A stretch of 64,000 nt of DNA from Minisyncoccota bacterium. Lineage in GTDB: Bacteria; Patescibacteriota; Minisyncoccia; Phycocordibacterales; UBA5272. The notes beneath the pieces were generated by a model that saw only the letters and a program-made list of their open reading frames with translations, searched no databases and was not told the DNA's origin. A program made the position numbers and the translations under genes. Positions 7,591-40,457 of the stretch are shown here, in pieces. How positions within the stretch are numbered: position 1 is the stretch's first letter; each line of letters starts with the position of its first letter. The stretch spans positions 604-64,603 of the forward strand of contig JAGORG010000005.1 in assembly GCA_018062965.1 (NCBI GenBank), read 5' to 3'.

Positions 7591-7836
7591 TTATCTGCGT
7601 TTCTTTTTTTCTACAAGCTTACCCATTCGCTTTGCAAGTTCGTATTTTTCTTTTCCAGCAAGCTTCTTCATCTTTGCTTTCTTTACTTTGAGGTCAGAAA
7701 GAGCTCGATCGCTGTAGCGAAGTGAGCGAACACGTGGGAGAACCCCAGATTCCTGAACCTTCTTCTGGAAACGACGAAGGAGAGAAAGAGCGTTTTCTCC
7801 ACCGTTCTTGATTACTTGTACGTTAACGTTTGACAT
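7591..7836 (-). CDS. rpsU: 30S ribosomal protein S21
   Basis: From the internal ATG: MSNVNVQVIKNGGENALSLLRRFQKKVQESGVLPRVRSLRYSDRALSDLKVKKAKMKKLAGKEKYELAKRMGK, which resembles bS21 (VxV..NE..E.ALRRFKR...G.L.E.R.R..Y.KP). TTATAAT lies 9 nt upstream. Confidence 0.8.
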   Translation of the reverse strand: MSNVNVQVIKNGGENALSLLRRFQKKVQESGVLPRVRSLRYSDRALSDLKVKKAKMKKLAGKEKYELAKRMGKLVEKKKRR

Positions 7837-7945
7837 AGTGGGCTCTATTATAACACAGCAAAAAGCGATTAGCAATTAGCTTTTAGAGGAAAATAAAAAG
7901 CCCCCATGTTCTTGGGTTGCTTTTGAAATGTGCTTAGCGTGATGT

Positions 7946-8395
7946 TTACTTGGTCTTTTTTGCAAGTTTGCCAACGGTAAGTCCTTTGGCTAAGAGTACC
8001 TCTCTGATTTCATTCAGGGATTTGCGCCCAAGATTCGCTATTTTTAATAGATCGTCCTCAGTTAGTTTGAGTAAATCGCCAATCGTTTGGATATTTTCCA
8101 TACGCAGAAGGTTGGCTGTTCTTACGGTTAGTTCAAGCCTGTCGATTGACTCAGCGGAAAAAGTCTCCTCTGAAGTCAAAGGGGCGGTTTGTCCTTTTAT
8201 CAAGGAGTCGAGGCGGTCGCGTTCTTTGGCGAGAGGAAGGACAACCTTACCTGCGGCCTTCTCTAGATCTTCATGTTCCTGTTGTAGTAATCCAATTTGG
8301 AGCTTGATTTCACCTTGTCGAGCTTTAATCCGGATGAGTTCCTCTTCCAGTTCTCTCAGGTTGAGAATTGGCACAGAGTTTCCTGTTGCTGCCAT
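7946..8395 (-). CDS. Standalone alpha-CTD-like protein (RNA polymerase alpha C-terminal domain fold) with an N-terminal coiled coil
   Basis: The C-terminal half, [59 protein letters not shown], aligns with E. coli RpoA alpha-CTD ([58 protein letters not shown]). The N-terminal half is heptad-like ([32 protein letters not shown]). A strong Shine-Dalgarno site, GGAGG, sits 6 nt before the ATG, which is unusual for this genome. Confidence 0.6.
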
Positions 8396-8509
8396 GAGTT
8401 GCCTCCTAAGTAATAATGAACAAATGTAAAATTCACACTACATGTAAAATGTAACATTGTCAATGAAATGTTTATTCGCTGAAAAGACTGTGAGCAGGGT
8501 AGAGTGTTG

Positions 8510-9835
8510 CTACTTCAAATGCTTGATGTAATCTGAGAGTGCGTCGATTTTCACAGTGTCTTGTGAGTGTGTAGACATGTTACGTACGATAACAGTGTTA
8601 TCCATAGCTTCTTTTTGTCCGAAGATAATACAATATGGTACTTCCATTTTTTCAGCGATTGCAAGCTGGGCCGAAAGAGAGTCTTTGGCAACGGATTGGT
8701 GTACTGGGATACGTGCCTTGCGCAATACCTCCATAATGCAAAGACTTTTTAGTTTTGCTTCAAAGCCAAGCTGAATAAAGTACACCTTTGGTGGCTTCAT
8801 AATACGTGGAGCGAGTGTTCTGCATTCTGGGAACATCATGATACGTTCAAAGCCAAGCGCTGTACCAACAGCAGGGACGTCTTTCTTTGATCCCATCATG
8901 CGACCGAGATAGTCATAGCGACCACCACCTGTAACAGTGATTTCTTTTTCTTTACCGTTTTCATCCACGTCAACTTTGATAACTTCAAACACGGTACGAG
9001 AGTAGTAGTCGAGTCCTCGAACAAGTGAGTTGTTGATACGATACGGAATCGCCATTTCTTCTAGATACTGGAGCACTTCTTTGAAGTGTGAGCGAGCATC
9101 GTTTGAAAGGTATGCAAGAGATGATGGAGCGTTTTCTTTAAACGGCTGACACTGTTCTTGTTTACAATCCAAAAGGCGAAGCGGATTTGTCTTGATGCGT
9201 TCGTGGCAGTCCTTGCACAAGTTTTCTAAATGCTTTTTGTAGTAATTGGTGAGTTCTTTGATAAACGCAGGTCGGGTTTCCTTGTCTCCCATTGAGTTGA
9301 TATCGACAATCAAATCCTTGAAACCAAATTCTTCAAGAATAGTAGTGAGTGTGCGGATGACGAGTGCGTCCGCAATAGATTTTTGAGTTCCAAGAATTTC
9401 CAAGTTGAATTGTCTGAACTGACGCAAACGTCCACGCTGTGGGTTTTCATGTCGGTATACAGGTCCGTATGAATAGAGTAGTACAGGCTGAGGAAGGTTT
9501 TGCATCCCATGTTCAAGATATGCGCGCATAACAGACGCAGTGAATTCAGGGCGTACTGCAATACGCTCACTTCCTTTTGTTCGAAAGGTGTACATCTCTT
9601 TGTCGATAATATCCGTTCCTTCTCCGTGAGCTGTTGTAAAAACCTCTTCGCGTTCAAGTACTGGAGTGTCTAGTGGTTTGAATCCATAGTACACAGCAAT
9701 TTCTTGTGCTTTTTCAAAAAGCCCTTGATAGGCATAGTATGTTTCTTCAGAAAGGTCGTGCATACCCTTAAGAGAAATAGGGGCTTCCTTTTTTGCATCA
9801 GCTTTTCCTTCTTTTTTTATATCTTTTTCATTCAT
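8510..9835 (-). CDS. hisS: Histidine--tRNA ligase
   Basis: Class II aaRS motifs, including the HisRS-specific GGGRYDYLG and GFERIMM. A Cys4 insertion (CKDCHERIKTNPLRLLDCKQEQC) lies in the middle. Confidence 0.9.
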   Translation of the reverse strand: MNEKDIKKEGKADAKKEAPISLKGMHDLSEETYYAYQGLFEKAQEIAVYYGFKPLDTPVLEREEVFTTAHGEGTDIIDKEMYTFRTKGSERIAVRPEFTASVMRAYLEHGMQNLPQPVLLYSYGPVYRHENPQRGRLRQFRQFNLEILGTQKSIADALVIRTLTTILEEFGFKDLIVDINSMGDKETRPAFIKELTNYYKKHLENLCKDCHERIKTNPLRLLDCKQEQCQPFKENAPSSLAYLSNDARSHFKEVLQYLEEMAIPYRINNSLVRGLDYYSRTVFEVIKVDVDENGKEKEITVTGGGRYDYLGRMMGSKKDVPAVGTALGFERIMMFPECRTLAPRIMKPPKVYFIQLGFEAKLKSLCIMEVLRKARIPVHQSVAKDSLSAQLAIAEKMEVPYCIIFGQKEAMDNTVIVRNMSTHSQDTVKIDALSDYIKHLK

Positions 9836-9854: not shown

Positions 9855-10592
9855 TTATTTTTCGTACTGATAACGACCCGGCTCAAGACCAAACATCGAA
9901 AAGGGGAGAACGCGCAGGAGTACCTGTCCGCGTATCGCATGGGCTTCAAGTGGTCCCCAATCTCGACTATCGTAACTTTGTGATCTGTTATCTCCCATCA
10001 TAAAGTAATGGTCTCCATCAAGTATCCTGTCCACGGTCTTGCTCGTGTCTTTGTAGGTAACATATGGCTCATCGAGGATAAATCCATCAGGACTCTCCGT
10101 ATTATAAATAGTAGTTACTCCGCCTTTGATAACGATACGTTCACCAGGAAGACCTATGACACGCTTGATGAGGTGTTTGCCTCCATAAGGGTTGCCAGAC
10201 TCTTCTAGTTTAAACACCATAACATCGCCACGCTTTGGTTCGCCGAGGCGATATGACAACTTGTCTACCAAAAGAAATTCTTGGTTGTGAAAGGTTGGTA
10301 GCATCGATCCACCATCAACGATGAACGGTTGAACGATAAATGTCTGAAGGATTTTGACAATAAGCATCACTGCGACAATCCATAGAAGAAGAGATGATGG
10401 ACGCTCGTCCTCTTCGAGGAATCGTGCGCGAACAAGTGTGTCTCTCCAGCTTGGGAATATCATTGCGAATCCAAGCGATATGATAAGCAGTGTGAGGATA
10501 GAAAAGATGGTGAGAGAAATTGGATTTTGACTGACTTCTAGAAGAGAATCAGCGAGTGCACCACCAATCGAGGAGAGCGTCGTATCGAACAT
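9855..10592 (-). CDS. lepB: Signal peptidase I
   Basis: Catalytic box GGSMLPTF (Ser), box E GDNRSQSYDSRDWG, and an N-terminal TM segment. The start is likely the internal ATG at 10592 (MFDTTLSS), 7 nt after a TATACT box. The longer ORF-track N-terminus overlaps pth. Confidence 0.85.
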   Translation of the reverse strand: MFDTTLSSIGGALADSLLEVSQNPISLTIFSILTLLIISLGFAMIFPSWRDTLVRARFLEEDERPSSLLLWIVAVMLIVKILQTFIVQPFIVDGGSMLPTFHNQEFLLVDKLSYRLGEPKRGDVMVFKLEESGNPYGGKHLIKRVIGLPGERIVIKGGVTTIYNTESPDGFILDEPYVTYKDTSKTVDRILDGDHYFMMGDNRSQSYDSRDWGPLEAHAIRGQVLLRVLPFSMFGLEPGRYQYEK

Positions 10593-10657
10593 GTGAGTCA
10601 GTATATAGATTTGAATCTGTGTCTGCAAATTTTGCGTTCGTTTGATACACTGTGTGC

Positions 10658-11188
10658 ATGATATACACGCTCGTACCTCTTGGTAATCCTGGAAATGACT
10701 ATGCTCGCACTCGTCACAATGCTGCACGTATTGTGCTTTCACATATAACAGATGAACTAGTATCTACTTCAAATCTTGAAATATTCGTACCCGAAACCTA
10801 CATGAATGAAAGTGGTCGTGCAGTTGCAGAATATCTTCGTTACCATGAAGGGCGTGAGCTTGTTGTTATGTATGACGACAAAGATTTACCTCTTGGTAGT
10901 TTGCGTATTTCTCATGATAGAGGTGACGGAGGGCATAATGGAGTTAAAAGTATTATTGAGGCTCTCGGTACGCGAGAGTTTACACGAATTCGTATTGGTA
11001 TTGCACCGATTGCGGTGGACGGTGAAACAGCTGTTGCTCCACATGGAGATATGGTGCAAGGGTTCGTTATGGGGAAGGCAACAGAAGATGAAATGACTGC
11101 GTATAAAGCTGTCTCTTCAAAAGTCTTACGAGCGCTTCGAGATATTTGTGAGCATGGATATCAAAAGGCAATGGAAAGGAATAACTAA
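10658..11188 (+). CDS. pth: Peptidyl-tRNA hydrolase
   Basis: LVPLGNPGNDYARTRHNAARIVL, the canonical Pth N-terminal motif, and HNG later in the sequence. The ATG is at 10658. Confidence 0.9.
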   Translation: MIYTLVPLGNPGNDYARTRHNAARIVLSHITDELVSTSNLEIFVPETYMNESGRAVAEYLRYHEGRELVVMYDDKDLPLGSLRISHDRGDGGHNGVKSIIEALGTREFTRIRIGIAPIAVDGETAVAPHGDMVQGFVMGKATEDEMTAYKAVSSKVLRALRDICEHGYQKAMERNN

Positions 11189-18146: not shown

Positions 18147-19001
18147 ATGGATTGGGTGTTCTATTCGATTATAGCCGCTATAACAGTCGGTATCTCTGTG
18201 GCATTGTTTAAAATGCCAACATTTAAAGGTTATAGTTCTCTTCACTCAACATTCTGGGTAAACATCTTTTCGCTCACAGTTGCTCTTATCGTATTCTTTG
18301 CTTTTACGGACGAAATACCGCTCACTACTATCTCTTGGTACGGGCTGATTTGGGGTGTGTTATTCGCTTTTACAACAGCCCAGCAGAAAATCTTATTAGG
18401 AAGAATGGAAACTAATATACTACTTCCTGTTACGTCATCGTTAAGCAACGTTCTTACAGTTTTCGCAGGAATTTTTATATTTTCTGAACAGTTATCTGGT
18501 CTTCAGTACGTTGCTACACTAATTATTCTTTTGTGCACCTTTCTATATTCTAGAAAGAAAGGAGGGCTAATACTCAATAGGTATGCAGTATTGTTTGGGC
18601 TTGGGATAATTATCTCTTCTACACTTGGTAAAGTTGTTCAGAAAACCGGAGCGGTACATGAATCAATTATTCATTTTGCAGTTTATCAGTATATAGGGGC
18701 AACTATATGTGCTTTTTTGCTTGTGTATTTGTTTCAGCCTTCTTCTTTAAAGCGACTACATAAAATTGAGGATACATGGAAAATCTCACTCGTAGCTGGT
18801 TTGTTTATGGCTATTGCTGGGTATGCATTTCTTTTAGCACTTGCCTCAGGTCCTCTCGCTGGAGTGTACTTGATAGCAGGGGCGTATACATTTGTAGCGG
18901 CACTTTTTGGAGTCTGGCTATACAAAGAAAAACTCACTAGGTATAAACTTTTTCTTATGGCGCTCGCATTCATCGGTATTATTCTCATGAAAATAGGGTA
19001 A
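18147..19001 (+). CDS. EamA/DMT-family-like 10-TM membrane transporter
   Basis: 284 aa with about 10 hydrophobic helices arranged in two halves. The start overlaps the gyrA stop. Confidence 0.5.
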   Translation: MDWVFYSIIAAITVGISVALFKMPTFKGYSSLHSTFWVNIFSLTVALIVFFAFTDEIPLTTISWYGLIWGVLFAFTTAQQKILLGRMETNILLPVTSSLSNVLTVFAGIFIFSEQLSGLQYVATLIILLCTFLYSRKKGGLILNRYAVLFGLGIIISSTLGKVVQKTGAVHESIIHFAVYQYIGATICAFLLVYLFQPSSLKRLHKIEDTWKISLVAGLFMAIAGYAFLLALASGPLAGVYLIAGAYTFVAALFGVWLYKEKLTRYKLFLMALAFIGIILMKIG

Positions 19002-19601: not shown

Positions 19602-20903
19602 ATGTCAATGTTCAAAATCATAATCTTTGGTGCAGCAATTGTTGCTGCGCTCCTGGCGATACTTATTTTCTCTGGGCGTATTCCAATCGGGGATGATGGA
19701 ACGATTGCTCCTACGGGACAGATATCGATGTGGGGAACTATTCCTGCAAACAGTGTTGGTCCAATCATTGGAGACTTTAATATTGAAGCACAAACCTATT
19801 CAGTTGGTTACCGTTATATACAAGAGTCAGATTTTTCACAGACACTCATTGAAGCGCTCGCAAACGGTGCGGGCCCTGATATGATTCTAGCCCCACATCA
19901 GATACTTTTAGAACAAGCTTCAAAAATTACACCATTTCCTGTGGCTTCGTTTAGCGACAAAGCATTTAAGGATAGGTATGTTGATGGTGCGAGTATCTTG
20001 CTAACTCCGCAAGGGTCTCTTGGGCTACCTGTTGCAATTGAACCTATGGTGCTGTTTTTCAACAGAACTATTTTGGCAAAGCGTGGAGTAGCAACTCCTC
20101 CTGTGTACTGGGATGATGTCACAACACTCGCTCCGACGTTGACACTTCTTTCACCAAGTCAGACACTTACTGAAAGCGCTATCGCGCTCGGTGCATATGG
20201 AAATGTTCCTCACGCAAAAGAAATTATCATGACGTTTATTTCTCAGCTCGGACAGTTTCCTGTGTTTAAATCTACCGAGTCAAACGTATACGAAGTGCTC
20301 GCTAATCAGCCTGTTGCAAAAGATGGAGATATACTGCCGCTAACAACAGCGCTTAGGTTTTATATGCAATTCGTAGACACAACTAAATCTACGTATACAT
20401 GGAATCAGTTTATGCAAAACGCACAAGATGCATTCGTTGCAGAGAAACTCGCACTATATATCGGGTATCTCGGTGAGGGTAAAGTGATACGTGAGAGAAA
20501 TCAAAAAGCAGATATCGACATGACGTACCTACCTCAAATCAAAGGGTATGACACATTTTCGACAAGTATGAAGTTACATGCAATTGCTACACTAAAGTCA
20601 ACCAAAAACATGAACGCTTCATTTGCTGCTCAAGCAGGACTGGCAAGTAGCAAATGGACAAGCCCGCTCGCTGCCAATATGGGAGTTGTTCCTGCAGAAA
20701 GGTCGTACTTTGCACAGCAGGGTGTTTCTGAAATTGTACGCAAGAGTACGCTCGTTGCACGAGGGTGGCAAGATATACAGCCTTCAAAGTCAAACGAACT
20801 TGTGCGAAGGATGGTAGAAGAGGTGACAAGTGGTAAAACATCCGTCACAGATGCCGCTCTATTGTTTGTAACCCGTCTCCAGTCCTTGTATACTGGATTC
20901 TAA
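19602..20903 (+). CDS. Membrane-anchored extracellular solute-binding protein-like (family 1/MalE-like fold)
   Basis: An N-terminal TM anchor is followed by GAGPDMILAPHQILLEQASKITPF...LGLPVAIEPMVLFFNRTILAKRGVATPPVYWDDV, which resembles the SBP family 1 core (G.aPDv...h..l.e.a....L.pl / lYyNkdl...g...P.tWde). No ABC permease or ATPase gene is adjacent. Confidence 0.5.
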   Translation: MSMFKIIIFGAAIVAALLAILIFSGRIPIGDDGTIAPTGQISMWGTIPANSVGPIIGDFNIEAQTYSVGYRYIQESDFSQTLIEALANGAGPDMILAPHQILLEQASKITPFPVASFSDKAFKDRYVDGASILLTPQGSLGLPVAIEPMVLFFNRTILAKRGVATPPVYWDDVTTLAPTLTLLSPSQTLTESAIALGAYGNVPHAKEIIMTFISQLGQFPVFKSTESNVYEVLANQPVAKDGDILPLTTALRFYMQFVDTTKSTYTWNQFMQNAQDAFVAEKLALYIGYLGEGKVIRERNQKADIDMTYLPQIKGYDTFSTSMKLHAIATLKSTKNMNASFAAQAGLASSKWTSPLAANMGVVPAERSYFAQQGVSEIVRKSTLVARGWQDIQPSKSNELVRRMVEEVTSGKTSVTDAALLFVTRLQSLYTGF

Positions 20904-20911
20904 TAGCATGT

Positions 20912-21649
20912 ATGACTCCGCGCTTTATCATATCTAACATCTTGGTTGCTCTCGTGCTTGTATTTGGTGGCGCGCATGCCGTCTTGGCTCAAGGCACAAC
21001 AGCGCCGCTTTCTGGGGATTCTGTATGTGGTAGTAGTACATCAACAATATGTAACCTTAAAGGTGACTTAGGAAATGTTATTCGTAATGCACTTGCGTTT
21101 TTTATAAAAATTGCAGTGCTATTTATGATTGTTATGTTTATGTGGACGGGGGTTATGCTCGCGATCTCTCGAGATAAAGCGGTTGCTTTAAAAGAAGCAA
21201 AAGGAAGTCTCGCTCGAGTTATTGTTGGCATATCTCTTGTAAGCATTGTTGCAACTGTCGGAACATATCTACTGCTACTTCAGTTTGCTGGGGTTAATGC
21301 GAACATCTTGCAGTTTATTGGTTCACTGTTTGCGTTTGTTCCAGGGGCATTTGTGATGCATGCATATGCGCAAGAGACAGCTTCATTATTGCCTAATGCT
21401 CTTGGTGTGACGGACTTGTACGATTTTTTGTTACTACTCATTCGTCTATTTGTCAGGTGGTTTGTATTTCCTGCCCTTGTATTTGCATGGCTCTATACTG
21501 GGCTACAGTTTGTATTTGCCCAAGGTAATCCTGGGAAAATAAAGGAAGCTCGTACATGGCTGTTGTGGGTGTTTATTGCAACGTTTATCATCATGTTATC
21601 TGAAGCGTTTGCGTTTGCTCTACGTTCGACTATTAACCAAATATTTTAA
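20912..21649 (+). CDS. VirB2/TrbC-like pilin-family membrane protein, an internally duplicated two-hairpin form (pilin paralog 1 of 4)
   Basis: A signal peptide (ALVLVFGGAHAVLAQG) is followed by two copies of a TM-loop-TM unit (IKIAVLFMIVMFMWTGVMLAISRDKAVALKEAKGSL...IVGISLVSIVATVGTYLLLL, then FVFPALVFAWLYTGLQFVFAQGNPGKIKEARTWLLWVFIATFIIMLSEA). Confidence 0.5.
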   Translation: MTPRFIISNILVALVLVFGGAHAVLAQGTTAPLSGDSVCGSSTSTICNLKGDLGNVIRNALAFFIKIAVLFMIVMFMWTGVMLAISRDKAVALKEAKGSLARVIVGISLVSIVATVGTYLLLLQFAGVNANILQFIGSLFAFVPGAFVMHAYAQETASLLPNALGVTDLYDFLLLLIRLFVRWFVFPALVFAWLYTGLQFVFAQGNPGKIKEARTWLLWVFIATFIIMLSEAFAFALRSTINQIF

Positions 21650-21657
21650 TACCACTT

Positions 21658-22308
21658 ATGTCTCGCTTACTCACTCTTTGTTCATCGCTTATCCTTGCTT
21701 GCGGTGTCGCATACGCTCAGACGTCATTTACTGGGCTTAAAGGGTTTATCGATAGTATCACCACAAATATCGTTGCGTCTCTCGGGTATTTAGCACTTGC
21801 CTCAGCTACTGTAGTGTTTTTCTTTGGTATTGTGCAGTTTATTTGGGCAGCACGCAGTGGGGAAGCAAAAGCGATGGAAGAGGGAAAGAGCTTTATGGTG
21901 TGGGGACTCATCGCACTCTTTGTGATGTTCTCTGTATGGGGAATAGTTCGGTTTGCGCAGGAGGCTATCGGTAGTAGGTACTTCCAAGATGGAGATATTA
22001 TTGTCCCAAGGATTCGTTTTGGAGACAGTGGTGGTAGCACTAGCCAGCAACAGACTAGTCCACTTGGTACCGGAGGTCAGTCTACAACAGGAACTGCTTC
22101 TCGGGCAGATGGTACACCGTGCGCATACTATCCAGGCGATCCAGATGGTGGTGTGTATAGGAATGGTCAATGTGTTTTGAAACCAGCTGAACGACAACAT
22201 ACCACATGCTTAGCTTTCGGTGTTGGAACTGGGTGTACTGGCACAAATGCCGCAGGGACTACATTTTCTGGTAAATGTAACACGTTTAATCAATGTGTAC
22301 CTCAGTAA
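21658..22308 (+). CDS. VirB2/TrbC-like pilin-family protein with a Gly/Thr/Cys-rich C-terminal extension (paralog 2)
   Basis: A signal peptide (LILACGVAYAQT) is followed by ATVVFFFGIVQFIWAARSGEAKAMEEGKSFMVWGLIALFVMFSVWGIVRFAQEAIG, which is paralogous to the next gene. It is then followed by GSTSQQQTSPLGTGGQSTTGT and an 8-Cys tail. Confidence 0.55.
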   Translation: MSRLLTLCSSLILACGVAYAQTSFTGLKGFIDSITTNIVASLGYLALASATVVFFFGIVQFIWAARSGEAKAMEEGKSFMVWGLIALFVMFSVWGIVRFAQEAIGSRYFQDGDIIVPRIRFGDSGGSTSQQQTSPLGTGGQSTTGTASRADGTPCAYYPGDPDGGVYRNGQCVLKPAERQHTTCLAFGVGTGCTGTNAAGTTFSGKCNTFNQCVPQ

Positions 22309-22377
22309 TTAATAGTGTTCACAAGCTTCTTGCACATATTGTCTAACGAGCTATACTTATACGTATAACCAAATATT

Positions 22378-22743
22378 ATGAAAAAACTACTTATCACTTT
22401 ATCACTTGGAGCATCGACACTTGCGGTTGCATTTGCTCAGGCTGCACCTGCTCAAAACCTTAAAGCGCTTATCGCTACAGTTCAAACAATTGTAACTCAG
22501 CTCCTTCCGCTTTCTGTAGGACTTGCTGTTGTTGCATTCTTCTTTGGGCTTGTGATGTTTATCGTCAAAGGCCGTGAAGGAGCAGAACATGCAAAGTGGC
22601 TTCAGTTTATGGGTATGTCTATCCTCGCACTTTTTGTGATGGTATCTATTTGGGGACTCGTAGCATTTATTAATGGAGTGTTTGGTATTACTTCAGGTGG
22701 AACTGCTCCAGAGATTGGAATTCCATCAGGCCCTAGAAACTAA
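22378..22743 (+). CDS. VirB2/TrbC-like pilin (paralog 3): a cleavable signal peptide followed by two TM helices separated by a short charged loop
   Basis: MKKLLITLSLGASTLAVAFAQA | ...LSVGLAVVAFFFGLVMFIVKGREGAEHAKWLQFMGMSILALFVMVSIWGLVAFINGVFG. The promoter TTGCAC-16-TATACT lies at 22330-22357, and a terminator lies at 22772-22795. Confidence 0.6.
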   Translation: MKKLLITLSLGASTLAVAFAQAAPAQNLKALIATVQTIVTQLLPLSVGLAVVAFFFGLVMFIVKGREGAEHAKWLQFMGMSILALFVMVSIWGLVAFINGVFGITSGGTAPEIGIPSGPRN

Positions 22744-22771
22744 CTATAAAGTTAGTGGTGTACATACAAAC

Positions 22772-22795
22772 ATGACCCGAAAGGGTCATTTTTGT
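22772..22795 (+). terminator. Rho-independent terminator after pilin paralog 3
   Basis: ATGACCC-gaaa-GGGTCAT followed by TTTTTG. Confidence 0.6.
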
Positions 22796-22811
22796 ATGAT
22801 ATACTTTTTGC

Positions 22812-23117
22812 ATGCAAGATATCAGCATGACATCAACCATCACAGATGGAGAGGCTATTTTTGAAAACGTCGTAACGTATCTCTTGTCTCCAATCTTTCA
22901 GCTTATTGTAGGTATTGCGGTCGTTTATTTTTTTTATGGTGTTGTGATGTTCCTCCTTTCTTTTAATAAAACAGGTGGAGGGGATGGTGAATCTATGAGT
23001 AAAGAGCAAGGCAAGAAGCATTTGGTGTACGGCTTGTTTGGGTTAATTATCATTTTCTCAATCAACGGCATCCTTATCATCATCAACGAGCTAGTTGGAG
23101 GGCTTTTCCAGTATTAA
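22812..23117 (+). CDS. VirB2/TrbC-like pilin-family protein with no obvious signal peptide (paralog 4)
   Basis: LIVGIAVVYFFYGVVMFLLSFNKTGGGDGESMSKEQGKKHLVYGLFGLIIIFSINGILIIINELVGG has the same TM-charged loop-TM layout and shares the FF.G.V.F motif with paralogs 2 and 3. TGaTATACT lies 6 nt before the ATG. Confidence 0.5.
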   Translation: MQDISMTSTITDGEAIFENVVTYLLSPIFQLIVGIAVVYFFYGVVMFLLSFNKTGGGDGESMSKEQGKKHLVYGLFGLIIIFSINGILIIINELVGGLFQY

Positions 23118-24564: not shown

Positions 24565-24726
24565 ATGTCAAAGATCCAGGACAATCTCATCATCATCAAA
24601 AACAAGGAAACTGGTGAGGTTTATCATACCCGCAAAAACAAAAGAAAGGTAACTCGTAAAATCGAGCTCAAGAAATACTCAAAGAAACTTCGAAAGCATA
24701 TAACTTTCAAGGAATCAAAGAAGTAG
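24565..24726 (+). CDS. rpmG: 50S ribosomal protein L33 (zinc-free form)
   Basis: MSKIQDNLIIIKNKETGEVYHTRKNKRKVTRKIELKKYSKKLRKHITFKESKK (53 aa) matches the bL33 pattern (IIxLxCxxxxxxxYxTxKNKRNxPxRLELKKYxPxxRKHxxHKExK). The ORF is below the ORF-track size cut-off and I found it by eye. TATAAT lies 9 nt upstream. Confidence 0.8.
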   Translation: MSKIQDNLIIIKNKETGEVYHTRKNKRKVTRKIELKKYSKKLRKHITFKESKK

Positions 24727-24794: not shown

Positions 24795-24865
24795 GGGCCT
24801 ATAGTTTAGTGGTAGAACAACGGCCTCCAAATCCGTTGGTCGAGGTTCGATTCCTCGTGGGCCCG
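24795..24865 (+). tRNA. trnW: tRNA-Trp (anticodon CCA)
   Basis: GGGCCTATAGTTTAGTGGTAGAACAACGGCCTCCAAATCCGTTGGTCGAGGTTCGATTCCTCGTGGGCCCG folds as a 7-bp acceptor stem (one G-U pair), a D arm GTTT/GAAC, an anticodon loop CUCCAAA, a T arm CGAGG-TTCGATT-CCTCG and discriminator G. No 3' CCA is encoded. There is one mismatch at positions 31-39. Confidence 0.8.
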
Positions 24866-24873
24866 CAGAAAAC

Positions 24874-26967: not shown

Positions 26968-26975
26968 GGTTGGGT

Positions 26976-27824
26976 ATGAAAGAATTTGAGTTTACACCTC
27001 CAGAAATTCCGGAGCCAAAGGAAGAGTTGTTTATGGAAGAGCTGGTCCACTATGATGATATGCCTGATGGAGTTACAGTTAAAAGTCTGTCGCCATCAGG
27101 TGCTGATGAGTACAAAAAGTGTATGATATTTAGTGGGCACAGATATCGTGTTTCATTTGTGCGTGTTGGTGTGGGTGACGATGCAGAATTTAAAATTCGT
27201 TTCGGTTTAGCTATGACAGAGCGTGCCCCTGTAACAAACTCAGGGCTTGATGTGTTTCGAAAACTTACCCACGAAATGCATGCTGTCTATGAAGACATTG
27301 TAAATGTGGAGAGTGTTAAAGCCCTAAGGTTTTACGCCTCAAATGACGGACCTTTGGAAGAGGTAAAAACAACGGTTGCAGACACTTTGCGAAGTAGTCC
27401 GGAAAAACTAAATGGTTTTTTGTTTAATGATGAAATGTCTAGATTCGTTGTGCGTACCCAAGATGGAACAGTTAGTATTGATATTAATAACCCGTACGGA
27501 GTTGTTTCAAAAACATTTCCGGTTGACGAGCATATGCTTGATGCTATCGCTGCGGTAGTTGAGAAGATAGATAGTATTCGTTTGGTATACGATCTATTTG
27601 AGTACATTCAAGAGTCAGATGAGGAAGTAAATGTTACGCGTAAAGAGCAACGTCTTAAGCTTTACTTGTTTTACATGCGTAAGCAGTTTCCAGAGTTTGA
27701 CTACAACGTAGAAACTGTAATGGAAGGAAACAGAAAAGTTGTTAAGTTTGAAAAAGATGAAAATGGCGAACCATATGTACGAGCTATTCTTCATAAAGAG
27801 ACTACACCTCACGCACAAGGATAA
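26976..27824 (+). CDS. Hypothetical protein (about 282 aa) embedded in the pentose-phosphate gene cluster
   Basis: An ORF with an ATG at 26976 (MKEFEFTPP), and I recognised no motif. It sits between rpiB and rpe. Confidence 0.4.
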   Translation: MKEFEFTPPEIPEPKEELFMEELVHYDDMPDGVTVKSLSPSGADEYKKCMIFSGHRYRVSFVRVGVGDDAEFKIRFGLAMTERAPVTNSGLDVFRKLTHEMHAVYEDIVNVESVKALRFYASNDGPLEEVKTTVADTLRSSPEKLNGFLFNDEMSRFVVRTQDGTVSIDINNPYGVVSKTFPVDEHMLDAIAAVVEKIDSIRLVYDLFEYIQESDEEVNVTRKEQRLKLYLFYMRKQFPEFDYNVETVMEGNRKVVKFEKDENGEPYVRAILHKETTPHAQG

Positions 27825-27839
27825 GGTATACTGCATACT

Positions 27840-28493
27840 ATGAATATCGTACCAGCAATTTTGCCACATTCTTTTGAAGAGCTTACAGAAAAACTATCTC
27901 GCATAGACGGTCTTTCAAGAGATGTACAAATAGATATATGTGATGGTAAGTTTGGCCGAGAGGTGACATGGATTCCAGATGGAACCGAAACACTACCGCA
28001 AGGGTTTGTATACGAATTTGATCTTATGGTCGCAGATTGTCAGTCAGTTGTACAAGCTGCACTTACTCTTGGTGCAAAGCGCATTGTGATCCATGCGGAT
28101 TCGATGTCAGAAGAACAGATGCGAGAATGCGCTCAGATGGTGGTTGCGCAAGGTGCTTCTGTTGGGGTTGCTGTTTCAAATGATCAAACTATTGATGAGC
28201 ATGTAGCAATGCTTCGCGCTGCAAGAAACGTAGATTCTCAGGCATATGCTCAAGTGATGGGAATACGATCTATCGGAGAACAGGGGCAAATTTTTGATGA
28301 AGAAACTCCAGCAAGAATAGTTGCGCTCAAACAGCAGGTTGGGGACGTGCTTGTTCAAGTAGATGGTGCGATGAATCCAACGAATGCCCCACGAGTTCTT
28401 GAAGCTGGTGCTGAGACCCTTGTTGTTGGTTCGTATATTTTTGGTGACAACGATCCAGGAACTGCTCTTGCTACGATGAACAATCTTGCATAA
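27840..28493 (+). CDS. rpe: Ribulose-phosphate 3-epimerase
   Basis: VPAILPHSFEEL...DVQIDICDGKFG...VQVDGAMNPTN...LVVGSYIF follows the RPE (ribulose-phosphate binding barrel) pattern (IAPSILSADF...D.MDG.FVPN...VDGG....AGA...V.GSA.F). Confidence 0.75.
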   Translation: MNIVPAILPHSFEELTEKLSRIDGLSRDVQIDICDGKFGREVTWIPDGTETLPQGFVYEFDLMVADCQSVVQAALTLGAKRIVIHADSMSEEQMRECAQMVVAQGASVGVAVSNDQTIDEHVAMLRAARNVDSQAYAQVMGIRSIGEQGQIFDEETPARIVALKQQVGDVLVQVDGAMNPTNAPRVLEAGAETLVVGSYIFGDNDPGTALATMNNLA

Positions 28494-28542
28494 GTGTGTA
28501 CTAGGTGTGAAGTTGGTTGAAACTTCACGCTATACTGTGTGT

Positions 28543-29403
28543 ATGTATTCCATCACCGATGTCGAAGTAAAAGCGCTTGAACTGCGAGCCCAAGATATTC
28601 GCGAGAGTATTGTAAAAATGCTCCTAGCTTCTGGTTCAGGACATACTGCGGGACCACTTGGTATGGCAGATATTTTTACAGCGCTTTATTTTAGAGTGCT
28701 TAACCATAATCCTCGTCACGCTCTTTGGAAAGAGCGTGACAGGCTTATTTTGTCCAACGGGCATATTGTACCTGTTCAGTATGCGGCTCTTGCACACGCT
28801 GGGTACTTTCCTATTTCTGAACTTCGAACATTGCGTCAGTTTGGGTCACGTTTGCAGGGGCATCCACATAGAGAGTCGTTGCCTGGACTTGAAACAACGT
28901 CTGGTCCACTTGGGTGTGGGCTTTCTCAAGCTATTGGTATGGCGCTCATCGACAGGTTAGAAGAACATAAACCACCACGGTATTTTTATTGTGTTATGGG
29001 TGACGGAGAAATGAACGAAGGGCAAGTATGGGAGTCGTTGCTACTACTTGGAAAATATAAACTGACAAACGTTATTCCAATCATCGATAGAAACACTATT
29101 CAGATAGATGGTTTTACGGAAGATGTGTTACCGCTTGAGCCACTTGCAAACAAGTTAGAATACTTTAACCTGCATGTTGTTGAAATTAACGGACATGATT
29201 TTCGAGACATTGTTCGTGGAATAGCAACTGCAAAAAGCTCACTCGATAAGCCAACTGTTATCATCGCACACACAATCCCAGGTAAAGGGGTGACAGAGTT
29301 CGAAGGTGACTACAAGTTACACGGAATGTTTCCAAACAAAGAAGCAGGACTTGTAGCGCTCAAAGAATTGAGAACCATGAGGGGTAAAATAAAGAATGAC
29401 TAG
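28543..29403 (+). CDS. tkt: Transketolase, N-terminal (TPP-binding) subunit of the split enzyme
   Basis: GSGHTAGPLGMADIFTALYF matches transketolase GSGHPGGSLSMAD, and GDGEMNEGQVWE matches the TPP motif GDG...EG. A TATACT box lies 6 nt before the ATG at 28543. Confidence 0.9.
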   Translation: MYSITDVEVKALELRAQDIRESIVKMLLASGSGHTAGPLGMADIFTALYFRVLNHNPRHALWKERDRLILSNGHIVPVQYAALAHAGYFPISELRTLRQFGSRLQGHPHRESLPGLETTSGPLGCGLSQAIGMALIDRLEEHKPPRYFYCVMGDGEMNEGQVWESLLLLGKYKLTNVIPIIDRNTIQIDGFTEDVLPLEPLANKLEYFNLHVVEINGHDFRDIVRGIATAKSSLDKPTVIIAHTIPGKGVTEFEGDYKLHGMFPNKEAGLVALKELRTMRGKIKND

Positions 29404-30391
29404 CATGTTACGAAAAACACTATTTACGCTTAATGAAGAAGAAATGGCCACCCGAGAAGGATTCGGTACTGGTCTTGTTGAGAGCGCAAAAGAACATCCA
29501 CAGGTTGTTGCGATATGTGCAGACCTAACTGAAAGCACCAAGATGGACGCCTTCAAGAAAGTTTTTCCAGATAGATTCTTTGAAGTTGGTATAACAGAGC
29601 AGGCGATGTCTGGGGTGGCATCAGGGATGGCTGCGATGGGGTATAAACCGTTTATGGCGAGCTATGCGATGTTTTCTCCTGGAAGAAACTGGGAACAGAT
29701 ACGCACAACTATTTGTTATAACAATCAGCCTGTGACGATTGTGGGGGCTCATGCCGGTATTTCTGTTGGGCCAGATGGAGCAACACATCAGGCGCTCGAA
29801 GACATCGCTATCATGCGTACATTACCTAACATGACAGTCCTCGTTCCGCTTGATGCTGTTGAAGCGCATGCGATGACACATTTCCTTGCAACATACAAAC
29901 ATCCTGCATATATACGTCTCGGACGTGAAAAGACACCTGTCATGTTGCCAGATGGGCATACGTTTAATTTTGGAAAGGCTACAATTATTTCTCTTCCAGA
30001 AGCAAAGCACGGGAAAGAGTTTATGTACAAAGTAGGGGTTATTGGTTGTGGTCCGATTATCTATGAAGCACTCTTGGCTGCAAAAGAATTAGAAAAAGAA
30101 GGTATTGGAGTAACTGTTGTTAACAGTTCAACAGTCAAACCTCTTGATACTGGTTTCTTGTTGCGGTTTGCAAAAGACGTGAAAGCATTTGTTACAGTTG
30201 AGGAAGCTCAAATAGCTGGAGGGCTCGGGAGTGCTATTGCAGAGTACATGAGTGAACATCATCCTATGAAGGTAATTAAAGTTGGTATACAGGACAGATT
30301 TGGTCAAAGCGGTAAACCAAAAGAACTATACCAAGAATACAACTTGACTAAGGATGATATAAAGCAAGCAATCTATCGTGCGATACAGTAG
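29396..30391 (+). CDS. tkt: Transketolase, C-terminal (pyrimidine-binding and C-terminal domains) subunit
   Basis: REGFGTGLVE...FFEVGITEQAMSGVASGMA...QALEDIAIMRTLPNMTV matches the transketolase middle and C-terminal domains. It overlaps the N-terminal subunit gene by 8 nt. Confidence 0.9.
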   Translation: MTSMLRKTLFTLNEEEMATREGFGTGLVESAKEHPQVVAICADLTESTKMDAFKKVFPDRFFEVGITEQAMSGVASGMAAMGYKPFMASYAMFSPGRNWEQIRTTICYNNQPVTIVGAHAGISVGPDGATHQALEDIAIMRTLPNMTVLVPLDAVEAHAMTHFLATYKHPAYIRLGREKTPVMLPDGHTFNFGKATIISLPEAKHGKEFMYKVGVIGCGPIIYEALLAAKELEKEGIGVTVVNSSTVKPLDTGFLLRFAKDVKAFVTVEEAQIAGGLGSAIAEYMSEHHPMKVIKVGIQDRFGQSGKPKELYQEYNLTKDDIKQAIYRAIQ

Positions 30392-32314: not shown

Positions 32315-33205
32315 ATGATGGAAAGAATGCGAGAATCTTTAGTCGAAGAGAAATCAGTTTCTACGCAAGAGGCTGTATTAGAACTGCCAAAGCATCTGGA
32401 TGTCTCAGAAGTTATGAAGGACAAGAATGCTTTCTTTGTACACATGATTCAAGTGACTGACCAGTTTGATGTTTCTGTTACCAATAAAAGCATAAATACT
32501 AACAAACTCTCTGTTAGTCAAAAGTTAGATCTTGTATACGGACTTTCTCCAACTTTGTCGGCTAGTACTATTCGACCTCATAAGAACGATGAAACTTTCA
32601 ATGGAGGGTTTGGGGTTATTTTTTCTCATGGAGAGATTGCGCATGCCCATCAAGGCGATGCTGCGACTCGCGCCGTATCTCTTAAGGAAAGAGATGTTTT
32701 AACTGGGGTTAAAAAAGAAAAACAGGACGTTGATAATGCAATTGAAAAAGAAACCGCTTCTTACAACGAATTTGTGCTTAAAAATCCTGAAGTTGCTGGA
32801 GGTTTTATGAAGCTAGCTACGTTTAACGATCGGATTACGTATGAAGAAGAGGAGGTTGTTCATTACAATGGAGAGATTGAGGTAACAAAAATTGGTGTTA
32901 TTGATTTGTCTAATCCACTCGACAGACTTGGGCGTGCAACAGGGGCGAATTACGACAAACCTCTCTCTGTGCTTATAGAAATGCAAAAACGAGGAAAAGT
33001 ATTTGTAATGAATGAAGGTAATGAAATGTATATTGTTCGTAATATTAACGAAGCGGAGAGGAGTGTAGAATTTGTTGCCGCACCAATAGATCCTACTACT
33101 TTTGCTAAAAGTTACGGTGCCGAGCGCATGAATATGTATCATAAAAAGGAAATCGCAGATCGTTTCGAGGAAAGTTTGAAACAAAAAGGAATAGCGCTAC
33201 ACTAA
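32315..33205 (+). CDS. Hypothetical protein (296 aa) between fba and malic enzyme
   Basis: ORF only, with no recognisable motif. It is probably co-transcribed with the metabolic cluster. Confidence 0.4.
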   Translation: MMERMRESLVEEKSVSTQEAVLELPKHLDVSEVMKDKNAFFVHMIQVTDQFDVSVTNKSINTNKLSVSQKLDLVYGLSPTLSASTIRPHKNDETFNGGFGVIFSHGEIAHAHQGDAATRAVSLKERDVLTGVKKEKQDVDNAIEKETASYNEFVLKNPEVAGGFMKLATFNDRITYEEEEVVHYNGEIEVTKIGVIDLSNPLDRLGRATGANYDKPLSVLIEMQKRGKVFVMNEGNEMYIVRNINEAERSVEFVAAPIDPTTFAKSYGAERMNMYHKKEIADRFEESLKQKGIALH

Positions 33206-34401: not shown

Positions 34402-35175
34402 TTAGCTTGTGAGCTTCATCAGCTGTTTTTGGCTCCAGCGGGCGAACTTGTCGCCGCCGTTCATGTGACGACGATGCAGGAACTGCGTCATCCAGGCGGC
34501 ATTGCTGTCGAGCCGGCCTTCACTGTATGTGACGCCGAACTTCTCTGCTTCCTTGTGGCAATCTTCCGGCGCGGTCGTGGTTTGTGAGCAGCTGAGAAGG
34601 ACTTCGAACGACTTTTCGCTGTAGGGCGTCGCGAGGATCTTGTGCAGCTTGCGCAGCTCTTGAATCAGGTCTGCTTTTGTGCGCAGGGCAGGTACCATGC
34701 TGTCGATGATCTTTTCGGCGACAGCTGGATGCTGTTGCATCCACACCAAGATACCGGAAGCGAGGCGCAGTCGCTGCTCGTTTTCATTGCTTGTGTAGTC
34801 CTGTGTGCCAGCATCTTTTTTCATGATGTTGTACCAGGTGCGGCCGGCGACTGCGCCGAGGTATTGGGCGCTGTAGATGGCTTCGGCAATTTCCTGGGCA
34901 TCAGTTGGCAGTGCTCCAGCTTTCATGTCGGAGATTTTCTGCAGCCGGGTCGTGACACCTGCTTCCATGGCTTTGTCAGCCGCGAGCTCCTTCTCTTTGG
35001 CAGTTTTTTCAGCTGCAATCCTGTCTTTCTCAGCCTTCTCGGCTGCAGTTTTGGCGTCCCGTTCGGCTTGGGTTGGCCCTTTGACGACAGGCGCTGGCGC
35101 AGGAGGAGGTTCATTCTTGTTGCAGCCGGTCAAAGCTGTCAGACAAATCAGAATCGAAATCAATGTGCTTTTCAT
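34402..35175 (-). CDS. Lipoprotein of unknown function, in GC-rich island 2
   Basis: A signal peptide with the lipobox LTALTGC, an Ala/Lys/Glu-rich linker, and about 58 % GC with CTG/GCC/CGC/GGC codon preference unlike the host. The Shine-Dalgarno site AAGGAG lies 8 nt before the ATG. Confidence 0.6.
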   Translation of the reverse strand: MKSTLISILICLTALTGCNKNEPPPAPAPVVKGPTQAERDAKTAAEKAEKDRIAAEKTAKEKELAADKAMEAGVTTRLQKISDMKAGALPTDAQEIAEAIYSAQYLGAVAGRTWYNIMKKDAGTQDYTSNENEQRLRLASGILVWMQQHPAVAEKIIDSMVPALRTKADLIQELRKLHKILATPYSEKSFEVLLSCSQTTTAPEDCHKEAEKFGVTYSEGRLDSNAAWMTQFLHRRHMNGGDKFARWSQKQLMKLTS

Positions 35176-39476: not shown

Positions 39477-39501
39477 AAAACCGCGCATAGCGCGGTTTTT
39501 T
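39477..39501. terminator. Bidirectional terminator AAAACCGCGC-atag-GCGCGGTTTT
   Basis: Perfect hairpin with an A-run before it and a T-run after it. Confidence 0.75.
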
Positions 39502-40457
39502 CATAGCACTCTAACCATTTCTTCTGCATCAGCAACGAGCTTCATGTAACTCTGAGCAGTTTCTCGGGCTACTCTGTGTATTCTTCTGAGTGCACGTTTT
39601 TTGTCTTCTTCAGGAATCTCTCGTGTGCGAATGAGTATCTCAATCGAAAACTGCGCCCCGCTAAATAGACTTCTTCCTCCACAGATCATTTCGATAATTG
39701 AGACGACCCACGCTTCAACTATTTTATCTTTTTGCTCCTTGTTATTGGCGGCCATCATAAAAGCAAGCGATAGGTAGCGAAATCTTCCGTGACTTCTTGG
39801 TTCACTTTGACAGAGCTTGCTAAAGCGGTCGATAATTTCATCGAGGTTCACGTTTTCGGGGTATGCACCCTGATAAGCAAACGCAATAAGTGAAGCAACT
39901 TTCCCGTTAACATTTGAAAATGTTTCGCCGGTTTTTTCAAACCAGTATTTCAGAAATGTTTCGCTACAACGTACAGGGTTGTTCTGGTTATAGAACCAGT
40001 GCTTGAAAAAGAGCTCCAAATCAACATGATGTACATCAAGAACTGCATCAGCAAGCCCAAGTATCTCATCCTGAGAGAACCACAACATGGGAAGCAAGTC
40101 AGTTTCTTTTTTCTTTGGGAAAGCACGTTGAGGAATCGCCCACATGTCAGACAGGGTGATCAAGTTGCCACCACGTTTTTGTCCATTGAACTGTGTGAGG
40201 TACAAACTGACCAAGTCTGATTTTTCGACAAGTCGCTTCTTTAGACCTTCTGCAAGTAGGCGTGGAATAAAGTCACGATTACCAAATGCATGCATTGAGA
40301 GAATGAATCCAAAAAGCTGTTTTTTGGTAGTGACATTAAACCTCTCCATGAGTCCTGCTGCACCATCTTCAAGGTCGAAGGACTCATTGTCAAAAAGTGA
40401 GGGGTCCATGAGTGGCAACGGAATAATTGCCGGGAGGTTGGTTTTGGGTGTTGCCAT
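39501..40457 (-). CDS. Hypothetical protein (318 aa) with a Shine-Dalgarno site, between uvrB and uvrA
   Basis: The ORF has the Shine-Dalgarno site GGAG 6 nt before the ATG. The product is predicted cytoplasmic and helical. The C-terminal segment KKRALRRIHRVARE contains an R-x5-H spacing reminiscent of HEPN motifs. That is speculative. Confidence 0.45.
   Translation of the reverse strand: MATPKTNLPAIIPLPLMDPSLFDNESFDLEDGAAGLMERFNVTTKKQLFGFILSMHAFGNRDFIPRLLAEGLKKRLVEKSDLVSLYLTQFNGQKRGGNLITLSDMWAIPQRAFPKKKETDLLPMLWFSQDEILGLADAVLDVHHVDLELFFKHWFYNQNNPVRCSETFLKYWFEKTGETFSNVNGKVASLIAFAYQGAYPENVNLDEIIDRFSKLCQSEPRSHGRFRYLSLAFMMAANNKEQKDKIVEAWVVSIIEMICGGRSLFSGAQFSIEILIRTREIPEEDKKRALRRIHRVARETAQSYMKLVADAEEMVRVL

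Follow-up and report, generated by a model that had tools for sequence, protein, structure and literature searches.

Tandem arrays of VirB2-like pilin genes are already known in Patescibacteria. In Southlakia epibionticum, six genes of the Pfam family PF18895 (T4SS_pilin), SEML1_0014-0019, lie beside genes for VirB4-, PrgI-, and VirB6-like proteins, and each of the six was scored essential in a transposon sequencing (Tn-seq) table; the ECOD match reported for SEML1_0018 is ATP synthase subunit c (Wang et al. 2023, PMC10633639). When 3,035 Patescibacteria genomes were searched with PF18895 and PF04956 (Quinonero-Coronel et al. 2025, PMC12102498), 383 assemblies yielded 441 arrays, each with 2-11 pilin genes; identity averaged 25% and reached at most 54%, and of 1948 assemblies, 1135 had a pilin gene close to virB4. 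A type IV secretion system (T4SS)-like system and a series of pilins are essential for the epibiotic growth of the one genetically tractable patescibacterium, in a role that was called completely unknown (PMC11665869, PMC12857230), and patescibacterial systems have been reviewed as unique among monoderms in their potential to make conjugative pili (PMC12857230). Here we analyzed a 64-kb stretch of a Minisyncoccota bacterium genome (GCA_018062965.1, contig JAGORG010000005.1; hereafter, the window), in which four consecutive genes, P1 to P4, encode pilin-like proteins downstream of a gene for a membrane-anchored solute-binding protein (SBP). We are highly confident that these genes belong to the PF18895 family and form a conserved operon. 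The window array is another example of the known arrays and no new kind of system. We did not find its fixed order of five subunit types, its gene fusion, or its lineage-wide coupling to a MalE-like SBP away from any secretion motor described in the literature, and PMC10633639, PMC12102498, and PMC12857230 make no mention of a solute-binding protein beside the arrays.

The window array shares with those of S. epibionticum and other Patescibacteria its Pfam family, tandem same-strand genes of about 100-190 amino acids (aa) with low mutual identity, a signal peptide followed by a helical hairpin, and a chromosomal location in an ultra-small monoderm; its four adjacent same-strand genes, which hold five units, fall within the published range of 2-11. 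Unlike the S. epibionticum array, it lies outside a T4SS cluster, after a methyltransferase gene and the MalE-like SBP gene and between gyrA and glyS, and among its members are a two-unit gene fusion and a unit whose tail is rich in disulfides. VirB2, TrbC, and TraA pilins (PF04956) are likewise small proteins whose signal peptide is cleaved after A-x-A and whose two hydrophobic helices are connected by a short basic loop, but none of P1-P4 reaches the PF04956 cut-off of 27.9 bits, and the host is, according to the literature, a monoderm. Several divergent virB2-like genes also stand in tandem in Bartonella, Anaplasma, and Rickettsia (as cited in PMC12102498); those are thought to be variants of a single subunit that serve immune evasion, whereas the window genes represent five conserved, architecturally different types. 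The Mbov_0395 family of pilin-like conjugal transfer proteins in Mycoplasma integrative and conjugative elements (NF045849) likewise consists of small membrane proteins with two helices that belong to a conjugation system of monoderms, but it is encoded by one gene on a mobile element rather than by a chromosomal five-type set, and the window proteins match it weakly, far below its cut-off of 40 (P2, E 0.0095, 15.6 bits; P4, E 0.11, 12.2 bits).

An earlier note on this DNA had read the four genes as VirB2/TrbC-like pilin paralogs and proposed profile searches with each of them as the check. In Pfam scans, P1, P2, and P4 scored 27.2, 30.2, and 30.7 bits against PF18895, above its gathering cut-off of 26.6 bits, and P3 scored 20.8 bits, under the cut-off. 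The hairpin unit of P3 is, however, 42% identical to that of P2, and some P3 homologs have precomputed PF18895 matches. The proposed identity is supported through PF18895, significantly for three paralogs and by way of P2 for the fourth. Among the 73 units of the window and related arrays, 69 matched PF18895 at E <= 0.01, and nine matched PF04956 at the same threshold, the best at 9.3e-6. The units showed repeated but weak profile similarity to TrbC/VirB2 and to DUF4134, which we take to be a Bacteroides conjugative pilin-like family. Identity among the paralogous units was 11-42%, and an HMM (hidden Markov model) built from the five window units revealed no further pilin units in a six-frame translation of the window. 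Searched against 1.84 billion representatives, a profile of the same five units retrieved 11,744 clusters (50% identity) with E <= 1e-3. Single polypeptides with many units were also seen, such as P0287 (8 units, 820 aa), P0298 (7 units, 606 aa), and P0314 and P0330 (6 units, about 555 aa), and many others have two or three. The linkers in P0287, P0298, and P0314 are about 25-35 aa long and contain no A-x-A signal-peptidase sites. These proteins resemble polytopic 2n-helix proteins and are reminiscent of fused ATP-synthase c subunits.

The architecture typical of PF18895, namely a signal peptide, two hydrophobic helices, and a short charged loop, was found in P1, P2, and P3 on the basis of hydropathy and A-x-A↓Q sites. 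The two-helix hairpin that had been claimed for all four proteins is indeed present in each, but the claimed signal peptide is missing from P4, as judged by hydropathy. The motif VV.FFFG.V.F...(K/R)..E, which had been put forward as common to the paralogs, fared less evenly when read by eye: it is best in P3, approximate in P2 and P4, and poor in both units of P1. From hydropathy together with the A-x-A↓Q sites and basic loops, we infer a topology in which the N-terminus is outside, the basic loop is in the cytoplasm, and the C-terminus is outside, and the Cys-rich modules described below would therefore lie outside the cell. The predicted mature N-terminus is mostly Gln (..A-x-A↓Q) in P1, P2, P3, and most of the type A-D proteins in the related loci L053-L075, and a relic HAYA↓Q site inside P1 shows the same pattern; an N-terminal pyroglutamate or another modification at the mature Gln is possible. 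The Agrobacterium T-pilin also starts at Gln once its signal peptide has been removed.

We fetched 66 loci from different species, using the SBP as an independent handle, together with several metagenome loci (loci are designated by L numbers), and counted linkage in the 56 loci whose downstream sequence extends for 3 kb or more. In 54 of these 56, at least three pilin units lie within 6 kb downstream of the SBP gene, all on the SBP strand. Pilin units occur at a density of 0.86 per kb downstream of the SBP gene versus 0.016 per kb in the upstream flanks, and the median gap between the SBP stop codon and the first pilin gene is 25 nt in the related loci. The block of methyltransferase, SBP, and pilin genes is intact where the downstream neighbor shifts from glyS to Band_7, IF-2, aminotransferase, or ClpB genes, and also where an EamA, AIPR, pilin-fusion, or Y1 transposase gene has been inserted between gyrA and the methyltransferase gene. 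This last gap is a variable insertion spot, occupied by an EamA transporter gene in the window (18147-19001), by an abortive-infection-type AIPR gene in L003 and L004, and by a Y1 transposase in L079 and L081, and empty elsewhere. Some relatives carry there an extra same-strand gene with a pilin-like unit (in L005, at 7707-9077, it encodes 456 aa with the unit near the N-terminus), and pilin-unit matches upstream of the SBP gene were also seen in L015, L025, L030, L035, L048, and L051.

Using type-specific HMMs, we classified the units into five types. Type A combines a signal peptide, an SGD-x-x-CG...C motif, and a hairpin; type B has an LPNPL..LYDF motif and a hairpin with an A-Q-G-N-P-x-K loop; type C consists of the core FMLWGLIALFVMFSVWGI and a tail; type D has a signal peptide, a hairpin, and a short Gly/Pro tail; and type E lacks a signal peptide and terminates in an aromatic residue followed by Tyr. 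The order A·B, C, D (1-3 copies), E is almost always kept in the closer clade, and for each window paralog, an ortholog can be recognized in the corresponding position in about 60 species. In comparison with a relative that has a 93% identical SBP (dS 0.3-1.0), dN/dS in the four pilin-like genes was 0.04-0.15 (P1, 0.074; P2 core, 0.043; P3, 0.111; P4, 0.043), compared with 0.057 in the SBP gene and 0.02-0.08 in the housekeeping neighbors. The P2 tail reached 0.224, its dN being eight times that of the core, with indels in addition. By this measure, the hairpin cores are as constrained as housekeeping genes and the predicted exposed tail alone evolves fast. This purifying selection shows that the four open reading frames (ORFs) are real genes. 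Five ancient types that keep a fixed order in about 60 species under purifying selection speak against the suggestion of a recently diversified repertoire of interchangeable paralogs.

P1 contains two units, visible as two PF18895 stretches and as two domains in the local HMM search (i-E 5e-27 and 8e-27). A signal peptide (residues 1-27, ..VLA↓QG) and an SGDSVCG..C disulfide motif (Cys39, Cys47) precede hairpin A (residues 49-130, nt 21056-21301), after which a linker, closed by MHAYA↓QE (residues 150-156) as a relic signal-peptidase motif, leads by way of LPNAL..LYDF to hairpin B (residues 156-245, nt 21377-21646). Both units are kept in the P1 orthologs of L004, L005, and L007, and two distant loci, L053 and L075, have A and B as neighboring but unfused genes that each encode a signal peptide. 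Therefore, although P1 had rightly been seen as a double unit, it is a gene fusion of two different types and not an internal duplication. The linker motif P-H-A-Y-A-(Q/A) is conserved in about 40 fused orthologs, and P-H-A-Y-A looks like the c-region of the ancestral signal peptide of type B. An intact internal signal peptide before HAYAQ was rejected, since in these orthologs only the c-region is conserved and the preceding segment is amphipathic rather than a transmembrane (TM) helix. Several species have Cys-rich domains inserted directly after the linker motif, a position that would fit an extracellular location and possibly continued cleavage. Cleavage at P-H-A-Y-A↓Q, by which one precursor might still give rise to two pilins, seems rather unlikely to us.

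P2, of type C, begins with a signal peptide (residues 1-20, ..AYA↓QT) and a hairpin (residues 25-105, nt 21730-21972), which are followed by a Gly/Thr/Ser/Gln linker and Cys-containing modules. Its tail (residues 106-216) is Gly/Thr-rich, with 19 G and 15 T among 111 residues, and Cys-rich, as had been described, but it contains six cysteines (positions 155, 172, 184, 193, 207, and 213) and not eight; the other two, Cys8 and Cys15, belong to the signal peptide and are not conserved, with Leu and Phe in their places in the close relative. The last module, with four cysteines, spans residues 184-216 (nt 22207-22305). An AF2 model of P2 showed a signal-peptide helix, hairpin helices at residues 27-67 and 70-103 (pLDDT 74-87), a disordered stretch at 113-148, and a small beta module at 190-216 (pLDDT about 90). 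The homologs of P2 have the core motif FMLWGLIALFVMFSVWGI in common, and their tails range from 55 to 303 aa with 0-26 Cys, built on a four-Cys repeat module, C-x5-8-C-T-x-x-[DN]-A-x-G-x-x-V-S-G-x-C-N-x3-Q-C-V-P. The tails of A·B proteins also vary greatly in length and Cys content in other species. The idea of a Cys-rich tip or adhesin-like module agrees with the predicted C-terminus-out topology, the eightfold faster evolution of the tail, and its frequent indels. Two short metagenome contigs, L001 (7.7 kb; GCA_020047435.1, JAHZTN010014900.1) and L002 (6.7 kb), encode a P2 identical to that of the window; the P3 of L001 is only 98% identical, which means that the window stems from a very close but different strain or assembly.

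P3, of type D, consists of a signal peptide (..AFA↓QA), the hairpin, and a short Gly/Pro-rich C-terminal tail, and it represents the sole type with multiple copies in relatives (1-3). P4, of type E, has an acidic N-terminal stub in place of a signal peptide: its hydrophobic hairpin begins after about 18 acidic or polar residues, its only hydrophobic segments are residues 19-53 and 70-99, and it ends in ..GGLFQY. Other gene callers start P4 at M6 (ATG at 22827, 96 aa). Its orthologs, of 80-97 aa, close most arrays as the final pilin-like gene, and their last two residues are an aromatic one and Tyr. Between P3 and P4, the hairpin ATGACCC-GAAA-GGGTCAT (7-bp stem with four G-C pairs, loop of 4) followed by TTTTTG(T) bears out the terminator that had been noted after P3. 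Two other claims about expression signals failed. Upstream sequence was said to be common to all four genes, but the 11-mer AACCAAATATT has only two copies in the window, at 21635 and 22367, and precedes P2 and P3 alone; as the first copy is part of P1 itself, of which it encodes the conserved C-terminus ..NQIF, we rejected it as a common regulatory element. A separate promoter for each gene was likewise rejected, because sigma-70-like matches in the array region were at chance level (8, versus 9.0 +/- 3.3 in shuffles) and the gaps between SBP and P1 and between P1 and P2 are too short.

The most constant partner of the array is the SBP gene, which had been treated as a mere neighbor in the earlier note, although its description there as membrane-anchored and solute-binding-like was accurate. 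The protein has a single hydrophobic segment (residues 1-31) with a signal-anchor helix at about residues 5-25, followed by an extracellular ectodomain. The window SBP itself gave no Pfam match and a weak NCBIfam MalE match (7.9e-5), and precomputed matches to PF01547 and/or PF13416 accompany the majority of its listed homologs (one 93% identical, others at 44-56% identity). The homologs are labelled Paceibacterota, Nomurabacteria, or Parcubacteria, which identifies the window as DNA of a Paceibacteria (CPR) bacterium; among the GTDB species representatives searched, the closest SBP is 52% identical. Because an AF2 model from a 14-sequence alignment was too poor for a fold search (pLDDT 57.5), we compared a sequence profile of 14 homologs with the PDB and obtained carbohydrate SBPs (4qrz at 2.7e-10, MalE, SmoF, the GNB/LNB-binding protein, and the trehalose/maltose-binding protein), in alignments that cover query residues 50-183 only. 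The homolog Pfam matches and the PDB profile place the protein in SBP_bac_1/SBP_bac_8. For a carbohydrate ligand, to which the PDB profile points, we see the chances as evenly balanced. The TM anchor is as conserved as the ectodomain, and Phe23 within it is invariant in 62 sequences. The SBP belongs to the same superfamily as the carbohydrate ABC SBPs of the MalE and UgpB type, but unlike these it has no adjacent permease or ATPase genes: we found no BPD_transp-type permease or importer ATPase in the window, nor one adjoining the SBP gene in those related loci for which gene tables were inspected. A second solute-binding protein, a 569-aa SBP_bac_5 of the peptide/oligopeptide type (57195-58904, minus strand), also has no adjoining ABC permease or ATPase, its neighbors being RNase J and an MFS transporter (55299-57164 and 54027-55196, both minus strand); such "orphan" binding proteins may be typical of this genome in general. 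Two systems elsewhere offer loose functional analogies. PrgZ of pCF10 is, like the window SBP, an SBP encoded beside conjugation-type genes, and it is an OppA-type peptide binder; the SBPs of the Sulfolobus "bindosome" are membrane-anchored and encoded beside pilin-like genes, but they assemble via type IV pilin-like signal peptides and not VirB2-like proteins. Directly upstream of the SBP gene in the window, the methyltransferase gene is identical to a gene in L001 and L002 with Methyltransf_11, 12, 25, and 31 Pfam matches, and a homolog occupies this position in 63 of the 66 related loci; its position suggests a functional tie to the array.

The SBP gene and P1-P4 are five consecutive, tightly packed ORFs, with gaps of 8 nt (SBP-P1 and P1-P2), 69 nt (P2-P3), and 68 nt (P3-P4), and the ORF list agreed with the coordinates, strand, and consecutive arrangement given earlier for the array genes (Table 1).

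Table 1. Features of the pilin-like array and its two upstream genes in the window.
Feature	Position (nt)	Strand	Remark
Class I SAM-dependent methyltransferase, 173 aa	19070..19591	+	directly upstream of SBP gene, 10-nt gap
Membrane-anchored MalE-like solute-binding protein (SBP_bac_1/SBP_bac_8), 433 aa	19602..20903	+	
P1, fused two-unit pilin-like protein, types A and B, 245 aa	20912..21649	+	
P2, type C pilin-like protein, 216 aa	21658..22308	+	
P3, type D pilin-like protein, 121 aa	22378..22743	+	
Intrinsic-terminator-like hairpin between P3 and P4	22772..22795 (stem-loop 22772-22789 plus T-run)	+	
P4, type E pilin-like protein, 101 aa	22812..23117	+	

Pfam scans of 50 window ORFs showed that the surrounding DNA is housekeeping chromosome, with ftsZ, ftsA, hisS, rpsA, gyrA, glyS, gap, pentose-phosphate and glycolysis genes, tgt, uvrABC, nrdAB, RNase J, dnaE, and lepB, the gene for signal peptidase I (9855-10742). 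The ORFs that had no Pfam match or were unscanned are all <=318 aa; one of 177 aa has four TM-like segments and the others at most one. Neither VirB5 nor outer-membrane components turned up in the window. Among other features of the region, transketolase is split into two overlapping genes, an N-terminal TPP-binding part (28486-29403) and a pyrimidine-binding plus C-terminal part (29396-30391), and a 257-aa ORF without a Pfam match (34402-35175, minus strand) has a lipoprotein-like signal (..LTALTGC). Further ORFs without a Pfam match include 26970-27824, 32315-33205, 39501-40457, and 50797-51732. Downstream of glyS lie a 53-aa ORF (24565-24726), where relatives have a 53-aa Ribosomal_L33 gene, and a tRNA-Trp (CCA) gene (24795-24866).

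On balance, we slightly favor the explanation that the locus is a patescibacterial VirB2-like pilin set, carried in Paceibacteria as a conserved block of methyltransferase, SBP, A·B, C, D, and E genes. The five types are probably a non-redundant, heteromeric set of one surface assembly; this agrees with the individual essentiality of all six S. epibionticum genes. Whether the assembly is a T4SS-dependent pilus is a more tentative matter, to which we give slightly less than an even chance, since the step that invokes a T4SS as assembler draws on family membership and on literature about another class, and not on the content of the window. The genome GCA_003518045.1, which carries the orthologous array of L005/L030, is listed as a Paceibacteria genome with VirB4 present.

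Several observations weigh against a T4SS pilus. PF04956 is matched in the window by P4 only, at 15.2 bits and E 0.025, below threshold, and the tie of PF18895 to true VirB2/TrbC pilins is remote. Comparison of the 73-unit profile with PDB sequences gave nothing below E 0.35, hence no solved pilin by sequence. Monomer fold searches, in themselves uninformative, recovered no solved pilin and gave ATP synthase subunit c among their weak structural matches. The earlier note was correct that the window lacks VirB4, VirB6, and VirD4; in the Pfam scans of its 50 ORFs we found none of these, nor PrgI. The called-gene tables of ten related loci contain no T4SS motor gene, and the six downstream ORFs scanned in L065 and L069 encode housekeeping proteins only (IF-2, aminotransferase, ClpB, Band_7), with no T4SS motor among them; the flanks of the remaining approximately 60 loci were checked for pilin units and nine window genes only. 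Physical linkage of the array to a T4SS is thus absent from the window and from the +/-10 kb flanks inspected around related copies, in which VirB4, VirB6, and VirB3/PrgI are not encoded alongside the pilin-like genes. The fusions of 6-8 units without A-x-A sites in their linkers suit a membrane-embedded oligomer as well as a filament; multi-unit fusions are compatible with any oligomer of neighboring units, whether tube or ring. Synteny upstream of the block (S1, Lactamase_B_3, gyrA) is about as conserved as the link between SBP and pilins, and because gene order in the region is generally stable, adjacency is weaker evidence of functional coupling here. Finally, no pilus made of these proteins has been reported in any organism in the cited literature.

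If the locus does encode a VirB2-like pilin set, the Sec pathway would insert the hairpin proteins into the membrane and signal peptidase I would cut after A-x-A, mostly leaving an N-terminal Gln; P4 would attain the same N-out/C-out topology without a cleaved signal peptide. The five types would then act as non-redundant subunits of one hetero-oligomeric surface structure. Type D is likely the bulk subunit, as it is the sole type that varies in copy number, and the lack of a signal peptide and the usual position at the end of the array make type E a possible base or initiator subunit. Type C, and in many relatives A·B too, would display variable disulfide-bonded modules for contact with the host cell. 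A VirB4-type, Gram-positive-like T4SS, encoded elsewhere in most Paceibacteria and often near dnaA, would extract and polymerize the subunits, and the co-transcribed, adjacently anchored sugar-type SBP may bind carbohydrate from the host envelope or the medium.

The alternative that survives best is a T4SS-independent membrane complex of hairpins and anchored SBP, a ring, tube, or "bindosome"-like assembly that captures host-derived carbohydrate and passes it to or through the membrane. It would account for the pairing of the array with an SBP gene, and not with virB4, in 54 of 56 species, and for the missing conventional ABC permease or ATPase partner next to the SBP in the inspected loci. 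The conservation of the SBP anchor, as strong as that of the ectodomain and with its invariant Phe23, suggests contacts inside the membrane. Family members with two to eight hairpins fused per chain, and the appearance of ATP synthase subunit c both among the weak structural matches and as the ECOD match of SEML1_0018, also fit such a complex. Fused hairpins in one chain also occur in c-rings. However, members of the same family reside within the S. epibionticum T4SS cluster and, in 1135 assemblies, close to virB4; the profile similarity to TrbC/VirB2 and DUF4134 is weak but repeated; VirB4 is encoded in the genome of a relative that carries the same block; and the adjacency of SBP and array may partly mirror the very stable gene order of the region. 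We regard this complex as fairly unlikely.

Considerably less probable is a set of interchangeable major-pilin variants for antigenic or host-range variation, as proposed for the VirB2 proteins of Bartonella and Anaplasma and suggested for Patescibacteria. The low identity of the paralogs, 11-42% and thus near the published mean of 25%, the differences between species in the length and Cys content of type C tails (and of A·B tails elsewhere), and the copy number of type D (1-3) would be expected of such a repertoire. Yet each paralog has its same-position ortholog in about 60 species, the cores are under strong purifying selection (dN/dS 0.04-0.11), the types differ in architecture (a fused double unit, a tail, no signal peptide), and the six S. 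epibionticum array genes are individually essential and hence not redundant. Chance hydrophobic frames or decaying remnants without function, a reading to which the sub-threshold Pfam score of P3 and the short, compositionally biased proteins might lend themselves, are refuted by orthologs with conserved order in more than 60 species, dN/dS far below 1 at dS 0.3-1.0, several significant Pfam matches, and exact or near-exact copies in independent assemblies, which leave this reading practically no probability.

Together, these results favor a VirB2-like pilin set with a fixed membership of five subunit types over a pool of variants, which argues for a hetero-oligomeric structure, and the fast-evolving, disulfide-rich tails mark the parts likeliest to touch the host. 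It is also conceivable, albeit improbable in our estimate, that the block is a self-contained, lineage-wide host-interaction organelle, a hairpin tube or ring that works with the SBP to take up host carbohydrate, either independently of a T4SS or using one for assembly only. If so, it would be a pilin-based device for nutrient capture and not a secretion or conjugation pilus, and fused multi-unit genes (P1, and those with up to eight units elsewhere) would represent pre-linked oligomer neighbors. In the largest patescibacterial class, the pilin-like set is coupled to a sugar-type SBP and not to a secretion ATPase, which offers a testable link between pilins and the recognition or uptake of carbohydrate. 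If this link is true, it would bear on how these biosynthesis-poor bacteria feed on their hosts.

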